Positions 33,957 through 35,139 of a stretch of 42,122 bases of DNA are shown in pieces. Both the position numbers and the translations under genes were made by a program. The first letter of the stretch is position 1, and every line of letters starts with the position of its first letter. Origin of the DNA: a virus (Duplodnaviria; Heunggongvirae; Uroviricota; Caudoviricetes); the IMG/VR virus record IMGVR_UViG_2778261299_000011, one strand, 5' to 3'. The notes beneath the pieces were generated by a model. That model worked only from the letters and a program-made list of their open reading frames with translations. It was not told where the DNA came from and searched no databases.

Positions 33957-34059
33957 CCAAAAGTTACATTTCTGCATAGTGTTGAGTTTGTTCACATTCA
34001 CTAAATAATGATTTTTTATCGCTTGCTAGGTGGTTGCATGATCACTAAACTTTGCGAAC

Positions 34060-34118
34060 TTTTAGCGCTCAGCTAACTTTGAATAAGTGGTGTATAGTCG
34101 TTTAAAACGACAGAGGGA
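34060..34118 (+). promoter_or_regulatory. Putative promoter (extended -10 TG-TATAGT) for embedded two-gene module
   Basis: AT-rich 160-bp intergenic gap; TGTATAGT at 34091-34098 about 30 nt before the ATG; no good -35. Confidence 0.35.
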
Positions 34119-34124
34119 TTGGGT

Positions 34125-34697
34125 ATGGCGATTAGCTACGCATTTGCGCTGGCAACAATTACACAACAAATGAATCAGGTTCAGGAAGCTGTTAACGGTG
34201 CTTTCAAACCCCTGATCTCTAATGCTTGTGAACTGCCACAACGATTAGATGCTGAAGAGGCATTTCGTCGTTGTACCGCGATTGCTGCACGCGCTCAAGA
34301 AATCGAAAATACCGCGAAGGAAGGCATGTCTCATCTCGAAGCTTTTCGAAATGGAAGAATCATTGTTGATGAGCTTCCGGAAGGGTTTTTATCCCATCTC
34401 GAAGGTCTTGCCAAGGCATGCCGAAATGCTAAAGGACATTTAGTGGATATGTTCTCTGAAGCGGAAAGGTCCCCTATGTGGCAAGGCCATCTGCAAATGT
34501 TGCGCCCATTAAAACGCAAATATGTTCGTGCGTTGACCGCCGTCGAGAACACTGCAACTCAGTTGGCCGCTGAAGTTAGGCAATCGCAGCCTTTCCAGGC
34601 TGAACTCTTGTCAGATAATGTTACCCGTGAAGAGGCGATTGAACTGATCTCAACATCGCATAAGATGCTGGGAGCCGACGCCCCTAAATGGATGTGA
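34125..34697 (+). CDS. Hypothetical helical protein (190 aa), upstream partner of YafO-like gene
   Basis: ATG at 34125 with GAGGG SD; stop 1 nt before next ATG; no family recognised. Confidence 0.6.
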   Translation: MAISYAFALATITQQMNQVQEAVNGAFKPLISNACELPQRLDAEEAFRRCTAIAARAQEIENTAKEGMSHLEAFRNGRIIVDELPEGFLSHLEGLAKACRNAKGHLVDMFSEAERSPMWQGHLQMLRPLKRKYVRALTAVENTATQLAAEVRQSQPFQAELLSDNVTREEAIELISTSHKMLGADAPKWM

Positions 34698-34698
34698 C

Positions 34699-35115
34699 AT
34701 GGCAAAAGTCAGTATCACGGGAGAATTGCGTCATTTAGCTGCAGCACATAAGTATGCTCAAATGCTTGCCGATTATATTTCAAAGGGTTCCCAGTTCTGG
34801 TGTTTTGGTTCGTTAGGCGGTTTTGAACGTAACTATGATGCGATGGCTGCCAACATCAGGAAAATTCACTTAAAGCTACCTGGCGATAAACCCTGGCCTC
34901 CAGAAGCATCTCTGAGTGAACGGACATGTGATAATTTTTTGGTATATGCTCAGCATCTTTATATCGATGAACACTATCAGATATTGGCAATCATCAGCCC
35001 AAACGCTCATCAGCAAGCTGATTCGATGCTTCCCCGGCTGATAAAATTAGCAGAGGAAACCTTCATAGAACTTCCTCCTGATGAACTCGAAAAATTGAAA
35101 ACCTACGATTCATAA
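34699..35115 (+). CDS. YafO-family toxin homologue (138 aa)
   Basis: Segments ADYISKG, IHLKLPGDKPWPP, SERTCDNFLVYAQ, ILAIISPNAH, KLAEETF align by eye with remembered E. coli YafO (ADFISYK, IHLANENNPFPP, SRTNDEAHLVYCQ, LLIAILKPEPH, KMAEAF). Confidence 0.65.
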   Translation: MAKVSITGELRHLAAAHKYAQMLADYISKGSQFWCFGSLGGFERNYDAMAANIRKIHLKLPGDKPWPPEASLSERTCDNFLVYAQHLYIDEHYQILAIISPNAHQQADSMLPRLIKLAEETFIELPPDELEKLKTYDS

Positions 35116-35139
35116 ACCCGCCACCCGGCGGGTTTTTTG
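35116..35139 (+). terminator. Strong rho-independent terminator after the two-gene module
   Basis: ACCCGCC-ACCC-GGCGGGT hairpin followed by TTTTTTGC immediately after the stop codon. Confidence 0.8.

Follow-up and report, generated by a model that had tools for sequence, protein, structure and literature searches.

What is a two-gene unit with a toxin-like second member doing among the baseplate genes of a tailed phage? The question is raised by positions 33957-35139 of the IMG/VR virus record IMGVR_UViG_2778261299_000011, a Caudoviricetes sequence of 42,122 nucleotides (the whole stretch that was analysed, hereafter the window), in which two short genes, here named A and B, separate the baseplate hub region from the gene of the membrane-puncturing spike. 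A first-pass annotation, made from the sequence alone, had described them as a YafO-like toxin homologue with a non-canonical partner, carried as a moron in a tail operon. The two genes almost certainly form a real YafO module. Together with its own control regions, the pair makes up a cassette which is read here as a mobile toxin-antitoxin (TA)-like moron in a cargo slot of a SEN34-like (Brunovirus-type) Escherichia coli myovirus prophage, a reading to which we assign a probability of about 0.65. On the best reading of its parts, A represents a new antitoxin family without a recognised DNA-binding domain and the pair is a type II TA moron; that the cassette serves in defence is proposed tentatively, from its setting.

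YafO is among the least understood toxins of the RelE superfamily. In E. coli K-12 it blocks translation via cleavage of translated mRNA (PMC2814082), and the ribosome dependence of this activity has since been questioned (PMC11980606). In large surveys its partners are mostly unknown: Leplae et al. 2011 found YafO associated with Phd and with unclassified partners, none of them on phages at the time (PMC3141249), and a 2023 survey of E. coli distinguished 13 partner clusters for YafO_toxin, with only 8% known (PMC10790755). Work on Pseudomonas prophages lists YafO as a lone (orphan) toxin (PMC10449497).

The assignment of gene B to this family, originally based on several blocks of similarity, is borne out by profile search, by predicted fold and by residues shared with K-12 YafO. 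Its product matches the Pfam profile PF13957 (YafO_toxin) with 62.6 bits, where the gathering cut-off is 25 (E=4e-17), over profile positions 12-98 of 101. It passes the Pfam cut-off but falls short of that of the NCBIfam YafO equivalog PRK09885 (31.4 vs 153 bits) and is 25% identical to K-12 YafO, and is thus a member of the YafO family and not an orthologue. The AlphaFold2 (AF2) model, based on 25 homologues, is very confident (predicted local distance difference test, pLDDT, 94.9) and places the protein in the RelE/BECR-type fold. Residues G37, H57, R75, P101, H104, E119 and F122 are invariant in the gene B subfamily, in two remote relatives and in K-12 YafO. By homology, B should arrest translation through mRNA cleavage. 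A search of PDB sequences with gene B matched no solved YafO relative. In E. coli genomes the gene is already labelled by RefSeq/PGAP as a 'type II toxin-antitoxin system YafO family toxin', so that only the partner is new. A relationship of B with SEN34_21, a protein of equal length, was rejected on a relatedness test. Its acidic isoelectric point (pI about 5.8) was considered as an argument against an RNase and dropped, as K-12 YafO has a pI of 7.0, close to neutrality.

The partner is strictly tied to this toxin homologue. A PF13957 gene follows A at equal spacing in all 63 analysed loci that encode a homologue of A, across identities to the A protein of the window that run from 100% down to 36%. 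The spacing consists of the stop codon plus 1 nt, as the first-pass annotation had seen in the window, and in three Serratia loci (L014-L016) the start codon directly abuts the stop. The weakest homologues of A recovered by exhaustive search, P0074 and P0075 (E~1e-4), are likewise each encoded directly 5' of a PF13957 gene, one of the two in a neighbourhood which looks non-phage. The nonsynonymous divergence (dN) of A follows that of B with r=0.96 over 105 comparisons and a slope of 1.25, A diverging about 1.25 times faster. In comparisons with unsaturated synonymous divergence (dS), dN/dS ratios of 0.05-0.08 (A) and 0.02-0.04 (B) mark both open reading frames (ORFs) as real genes under strong purifying selection. 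A decayed copy from Salmonella Braenderup (L072 2501-2842) keeps a C-terminal fragment of A and has lost B. The two genes are thus adjacent, co-oriented, tightly coupled and co-occurring, which is the architecture of type II TA modules; the DNA-binding domain of the antitoxin and the autoregulation of the operon, which are typical of that type and not universal in it, were not found with A. As judged from sequence, the strict position, coupling, exclusivity and co-divergence of the pair make A the probable cognate neutraliser of B.

The protein encoded by gene A resembles no described antitoxin. Searches against Pfam, NCBIfam, PADLOC and PDB sequences returned no significant match (chance matches only in the case of the PDB), and Pfam and NCBIfam gave no helix-turn-helix (HTH), ribbon-helix-helix (RHH), Phd or AbrB match. 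The view that it is not the canonical YafN antitoxin holds, since kinship with YafN or with Phd/YefM proteins is ruled out (BLASTP E=0.44; hhalign probability 0.2%). The protein belongs to phrog_35514, a family of unknown function, and matches no structural phage protein. Its helical character, which had also been claimed, is returned by the AF2 model, all-helical with a pLDDT of 77.5 and a predicted template modelling score (pTM) of 0.66. Helices at residues 3-31, 43-75, 88-115 and 123-154 are predicted to form a four-helix bundle, generic in its fold, followed by a non-helical linker with a low-confidence, likely flexible segment (157-163), and then by a helix at 168-181 and a tail. Two further candidate assignments were set aside: a relationship with the cargo protein of Yersinia phage YP3 was rejected on a relatedness test, and a signal peptide at the N-terminus was rejected by eye, neither a charged n-region nor an AxA site being present.

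The family of A is small and taxonomically confined. It accounts for 36 of 5.8 billion clusters at 90% identity, and for only 14 representatives at 50% identity in an exhaustive HMMER search of 1.84 billion proteins; it was found in 3 of 185,579 species-representative genomes and at 46 IMG/VR loci. All named sources are Enterobacterales or their phages (Escherichia, Salmonella, Citrobacter, Klebsiella, Leclercia, Cronobacter, Serratia and Pantoea). Over 15 diverse natural pairs only M1, W119, L137, I175, S178, H179 and W189 of A are invariant. One motif, F-x-x-AE-x-S-x-x-W-x-x-H, surrounds W119 and another, SH-x(4)-G-x(3)-P-x-W, is C-terminal; both reappear in the remote homologues P0074, P0075 and a protein of phage CUS-3. 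The annotated ATG is the start conserved across the family; an in-frame TTG at 34119 is also listed by the ORF tool. As a separate observation, cysteines C35 and C50 (window 34227-34229 and 34272-34274) do not vary among the 30 aligned members of the family, are kept in 36%-identical Serratia proteins, and are missing from P0074; a structural, redox or metal role is possible for them.

The cassette carries signals of its own (Table 1). The AT-rich gap ahead of the pair, noted at first pass, has a guanine-cytosine (GC) fraction of 0.37, as compared with 0.447 for the module, 0.49 for the window and about 0.53-0.57 for the adjacent baseplate genes, and its 3' portion of about 100 nt accompanies the cassette into other phage contexts. 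Within this portion the best supported promoter candidate is kept, as TTGNNN-N17/18-TA(A/C)ACT, in all 13 enterobacterial variants of the cassette, which come from different phage contexts, at a distance of 70-78 nt from the start codon in 12 of them and of 100 nt in the remaining one. This conserved motif would drive transcription of the cassette. The extended -10-like element described earlier is probably the hexamer TATAGT; the hexamer is there, but it is preceded by the triplet GTG and not by TGN, so that it does not form a canonical extended -10. On the downstream side the strong terminator stands as described, with a 9-bp stem containing 6 G-C pairs and a T run after it. Both terminator and tail stay conserved where the cassette stands in other phages, and the tail marks the right edge of the cassette.

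Between the promoter-like motif and the start codon lies a leader in which every cassette variant has two inverted-repeat positions. At the position of the first, divergent cassettes have an inverted repeat of different sequence. At the position of the second, the divergent cassettes L008, L013, L016, L019 and L061 have a strong terminator-like stem with a T run, within leaders of about 70-100 nt, which suggests attenuation or a short leader RNA; the second hairpin of the window is without a T run. The leader folds no better than shuffled sequence (z=0.52), RNAalifold returned two small hairpins with zero compensatory changes, and hence no covariation, for the leaders of the close clade, and no relevant Rfam family was matched. 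The sequence AGAGGG at the Shine-Dalgarno site of gene A is conserved in the close clade. Gene B has no convincing Shine-Dalgarno sequence.

Table 1. Features of the cassette and its flanks in the window, followed by the loci of the second partner family (positions within each locus).
Feature	Position	Strand	Remarks
Baseplate hub-region gene	32551-33612		upstream flank of the cassette
113-aa ORF	33615-33956	+	directly 5' of the cassette; phrog_3443 (function unknown); low GC
AT-rich intergenic control region	33957-34124	+	168 nt
Promoter-like element TTGCTA-N17-TAAACT	34023-34051	+	TTGCTA 34023-34028; TAAACT 34046-34051; best supported candidate
Leader inverted repeat 1, TTAGC-N5-GCTAA	34062-34076	+	read straight from the sequence
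-10-like hexamer TATAGT	34093-34098	+	alternative; conservation limited to the closest variants
Leader inverted repeat 2, GTCGTTT-A-AAACGAC	34097-34111	+	immediately 5' of the Shine-Dalgarno sequence
Shine-Dalgarno sequence GAGGG	34113-34117	+	7 nt upstream of the gene A ATG
Gene A, putative antitoxin	34125-34697	+	ATG 34125; TGA 34695-34697; 190 aa; 1 nt before gene B
Gene B, YafO-family (PF13957) RelE-superfamily toxin homologue	34699-35115	+	ATG 34699; TAA 35113-35115; 138 aa
Intrinsic terminator and tail	35114-35145	+	stem 35114-35135, then T run, then conserved TTGCTTTCT tail
Membrane-puncturing spike gene	35158-35913		downstream flank of the cassette
Second partner family, L069 (HK639_17/18)	1336-2354		
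Second partner family, L070	1372-2363		
Second partner family, L071	222-1212		

That the cassette is mobile follows from where else it is found. At least five unrelated phage contexts harbour it. Two are in myoviruses, namely the hub/spike slot of the SEN34-like kind and a baseplate slot in a second type; in siphoviruses it lies between a DUF6246 gene and the tape-measure gene, with varied other small genes after it; and it is also present in a YdaY-type siphovirus and in the nin region of lambdoid phages. CUS-3, which has a remote version in its immI region, extends the list to a P22-like phage. Both flanks of the hub/spike junction (window 33613-35157) are present in 318 E. coli genomes, of which 36 hold the YafO cassette and 282 hold DUF4282, DUF2335, HMG-box or unnamed genes in its place, and SEN34 and YP3 have other, unrelated genes there. 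The junction is a variable cargo hotspot, and the claim of a moron in a tail operon is well founded: the cassette has a terminator, a conserved promoter-like motif and a deviant GC content, and relatives carry other cargo at its site. Among the 36 E. coli genomes the cassette (34020-35140) is 99.3-99.7% identical, with flanks mostly at 90-97%, a difference which suggests recent horizontal exchange between prophage variants.

Morons of temperate phages are units of promoter, gene and terminator set among backbone genes, an example being gp15 of HK97 in the tail operon. The cassette resembles them as an autonomous unit among tail genes, deviant in GC and missing from close relatives, and differs in that its cargo is a two-gene toxin-partner pair and not a single exclusion or conversion gene.

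Among characterised systems the closest is yafNO of E. coli K-12 (dinB-yafN-yafO-yafP). The two have in common a PF13957 toxin with the RelE-superfamily fold and residues H57, R75, H104 and E119, the order of partner then toxin, and a junction of 1-2 nt. Their toxins, in contrast, are only 25% identical, far under the orthologue cut-off, and the helical 190-aa A is unrelated to the 97-aa Phd/YefM-type YafN. Moreover, yafNO sits in the chromosomal dinB operon, whereas the A-B pair belongs to a prophage moron that is mobile and brings along a terminator and a promoter-like motif.

Closer in its partner is a pair in CUS-3, a P22-like phage of E. coli K1, where ECRS218_0007 and ECRS218_0008, both deposited as hypothetical proteins, comprise a 199-aa A-like protein encoded directly 5' of a PF13957 gene (L068 2360-3363, CP000711.1 7577-8580). 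The pair lies in the podovirus immI region between mnt and a DNA-transfer gene. The C-terminal half of the 199-aa protein aligns with that of A (hhalign E=8.6e-5), sharing the motifs AExSxxWxxH and SHKxxGxxxPKW. The differences are that the toxins are 39% identical, that the partners cannot be aligned over their N-terminal halves and that the genes overlap by 16 nt.

Further pairs in which a PF13957 toxin comes after a domainless partner of 179-190 aa were found in HK639 (HK639_17/18), Pseudomonas phage YMC11/02/R656 (gp093/gp092) and Escherichia phage PhiR40_1 ('YafM'/YafO). They resemble the A-B pair in occupying accessory slots, for example the tail region of HK639. A relationship between A and the HK639_17 family is not detectable (alignment A8; hhalign probability 2%), and the partners of that family have signal-peptide-like N-termini, which would be odd for an antitoxin. 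In all the phage records examined (CUS-3, HK639, YMC11/02/R656 and PhiR40_1), YafO toxins thus stand with long partners other than YafN. A literature search found no paper on the A-B pair or on the YafO of CUS-3 or HK639, nor one supporting the label 'YafM antitoxin' which the depositors of PhiR40_1 gave to its partner.

Two other groups invite comparison: type II antitoxins without a DNA-binding domain, such as PaaA2 of the paaR2-paaA2-parE2 prophage module, and promiscuous antitoxin domains such as Panacea/DUF4065. The A-B pair is like them in joining a toxin of the RelE/ParE superfamily to a partner without HTH, RHH, Phd or AbrB domain. It differs in that A has no sequence match to PaaA2 or Panacea proteins, is larger and is predicted to be a folded bundle; also, the cassette has no separate regulator gene.

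From these elements a working model can be assembled. B would act, by homology, as a YafO-type mRNA interferase which halts translation, and A would most likely bind and neutralise it as its cognate antitoxin. Neutralisation would probably run through the conserved C-terminal half of A, that is the W119 motif together with the tethered C-terminal helix and tail bearing S178, H179 and W189, a contact region suggested by the pattern of conservation over the 15 pairs and by the CUS-3 alignment. The junction of stop plus 1 nt and the lack of a good Shine-Dalgarno sequence for B suggest that translation of B is coupled to that of A, which would keep A at or above B. Since A lacks a recognisable DNA-binding domain, autorepression is probably replaced by control through the cassette-borne promoter and the leader of about 70 nt. 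In a lysogen, where the tail genes are silent, the promoter of the cassette would probably drive expression of the pair. If A were lost or displaced, the result could be superinfection exclusion or abortive infection, or else prophage retention; it is the presence of the cassette in cargo slots of temperate phages that points to an exclusion or retention role.

A wider and rather unlikely generalisation would place A and the unrelated HK639_17 family in one class of helical sensor-antitoxins of about 180-200 aa for phage YafO toxins, all without DNA-binding domains. In such proteins the C-terminal half would clamp the toxin, a component of the invader would displace or degrade the fast-evolving N-terminal bundle, YafO would then shut off translation, and control would lie with the promoter and an attenuator-like leader.

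Several results weigh against the cassette being a TA-like moron with a role in defence. A is predicted to be a mostly well-folded helical bundle that lacks a DNA-binding domain, which type II antitoxins typically are not. The conservation of H57, R75 and H104 is only suggestive, as no experiment has defined which residues of YafO are catalytic. A generic consensus promoter scan of the cassette region gave hits not above those in shuffled sequence. In a Logan short-read contig (L073 2119-3108) a 1-nt indel relative to L044 splits A and leaves B intact; if the indel is real, it would mean that an intact B can be tolerated where A is not full-length or that a C-terminal fragment of A is sufficient, and it may equally be an assembly error. 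Neither A nor B matches PADLOC-DB v2 at E<=1, and direct support for defence is not provided by that search.

Some of these points feed into other explanations. The pair could be a TA module for prophage retention, through post-segregational or post-excision killing, or for selfish persistence, and not for anti-phage defence. Such a function would follow the classic logic of type II modules, and it agrees with a cassette which is far more conserved (99.3-99.7%) than the surrounding backbone, is spread over many phage backbones and matches no defence-system model. We hold it to be somewhat unlikely, as the slots of the cassette hold other accessory or exclusion-type cargo and the CUS-3 copy adjoins a DNA-transfer gene in the immI region, at a location where P22 has sieA; retention and defence are, besides, compatible and not mutually exclusive. 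It is improbable that A is instead a sensor, activator, chaperone or regulator, with B neutralised by the leader RNA of about 70 nt in a type III-like manner, by a small unannotated product or through cross-talk with a host antitoxin. The strict upstream position of A, its tight coupling and its co-divergence with B over a wide range of identity are the signature of a cognate antitoxin. The leader, for its part, varies in sequence without close-clade covariation, folds like its shuffles, matches no Rfam family and, in the window, has a second hairpin devoid of a T run.

The low similarity of B to K-12 YafO (25% identity) and its score far under the equivalog cut-off (31 vs 153 bits), taken with the orientation of the cassette along the late operon, could also mean that B is a non-toxin with the YafO fold, for example a phage RNase or ribosome-binding factor of lytic growth with A as its cofactor. 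B has kept the family-invariant residues, however, and the cassette is untied from late expression, being present in the early (nin) and immI regions as well; besides bringing a promoter-like motif and a terminator of its own, it is missing from most related phages, as a core lytic function would not be. This explanation is therefore highly improbable. Position within the baseplate gene cluster is the sole argument for A and B being structural or assembly proteins of the tail or baseplate, an idea rendered next to untenable by the absence of both genes in SEN34, in YP3 and in the majority of E. coli relatives that share these flanks, by their presence in siphovirus, lambdoid nin-region and P22-like immI contexts, and by the lack of any structural-protein match. 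The TA-like moron is the account retained.

Three things are new here: the family of the partner, the strictness with which it goes with YafO, and the mobility of the cassette, control regions included. The locus makes it plain that YafO toxins borne by phages pair with proteins other than YafN, and it supplies a strictly linked partner family with the signature residues W119, S178, H179 and W189, of which at least 15 diverse natural A-B pairs are usable for co-folding or mutagenesis. If A does neutralise B, an additional antitoxin family without a DNA-binding domain would be gained; if the cassette excludes phages, it would be a compact two-gene defence module, and the hub/spike slot of SEN34-like phages and the DUF6246/tape-measure slot of siphoviruses would be cargo hotspots worth mining. 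The gain is incremental and not conceptual, as new antitoxin partners of known toxins turn up regularly.

The cassette shares its strand with the late operon. Its immediate upstream neighbour, the 113-aa ORF, has a signal-peptide-like N-terminus beginning MKALAILIVAFMSFGASASG; it is present in YP3 and in E. coli relatives, is missing from SEN34, and probably adds a second accessory gene, with a secreted or lipoprotein-like product, to the hub/spike slot. The window as a whole is a temperate phage genome or prophage in which the early region is of lambdoid type and the contractile tail module is SEN34/Brunovirus-like; its close copies are E. coli prophages integrated beside tRNA-Arg and yfdC. 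A lambda cIII thermoregulator element lies at 7070-7128 on the minus strand (Rfam RF01804, 88.5 bits), and two phage-borne tRNA genes, Asn-GTT and Thr-TGT, at 15784-15939 on the plus strand; with these elements, the genome joins a lambdoid early region to the tail of a SEN34-like myovirus.

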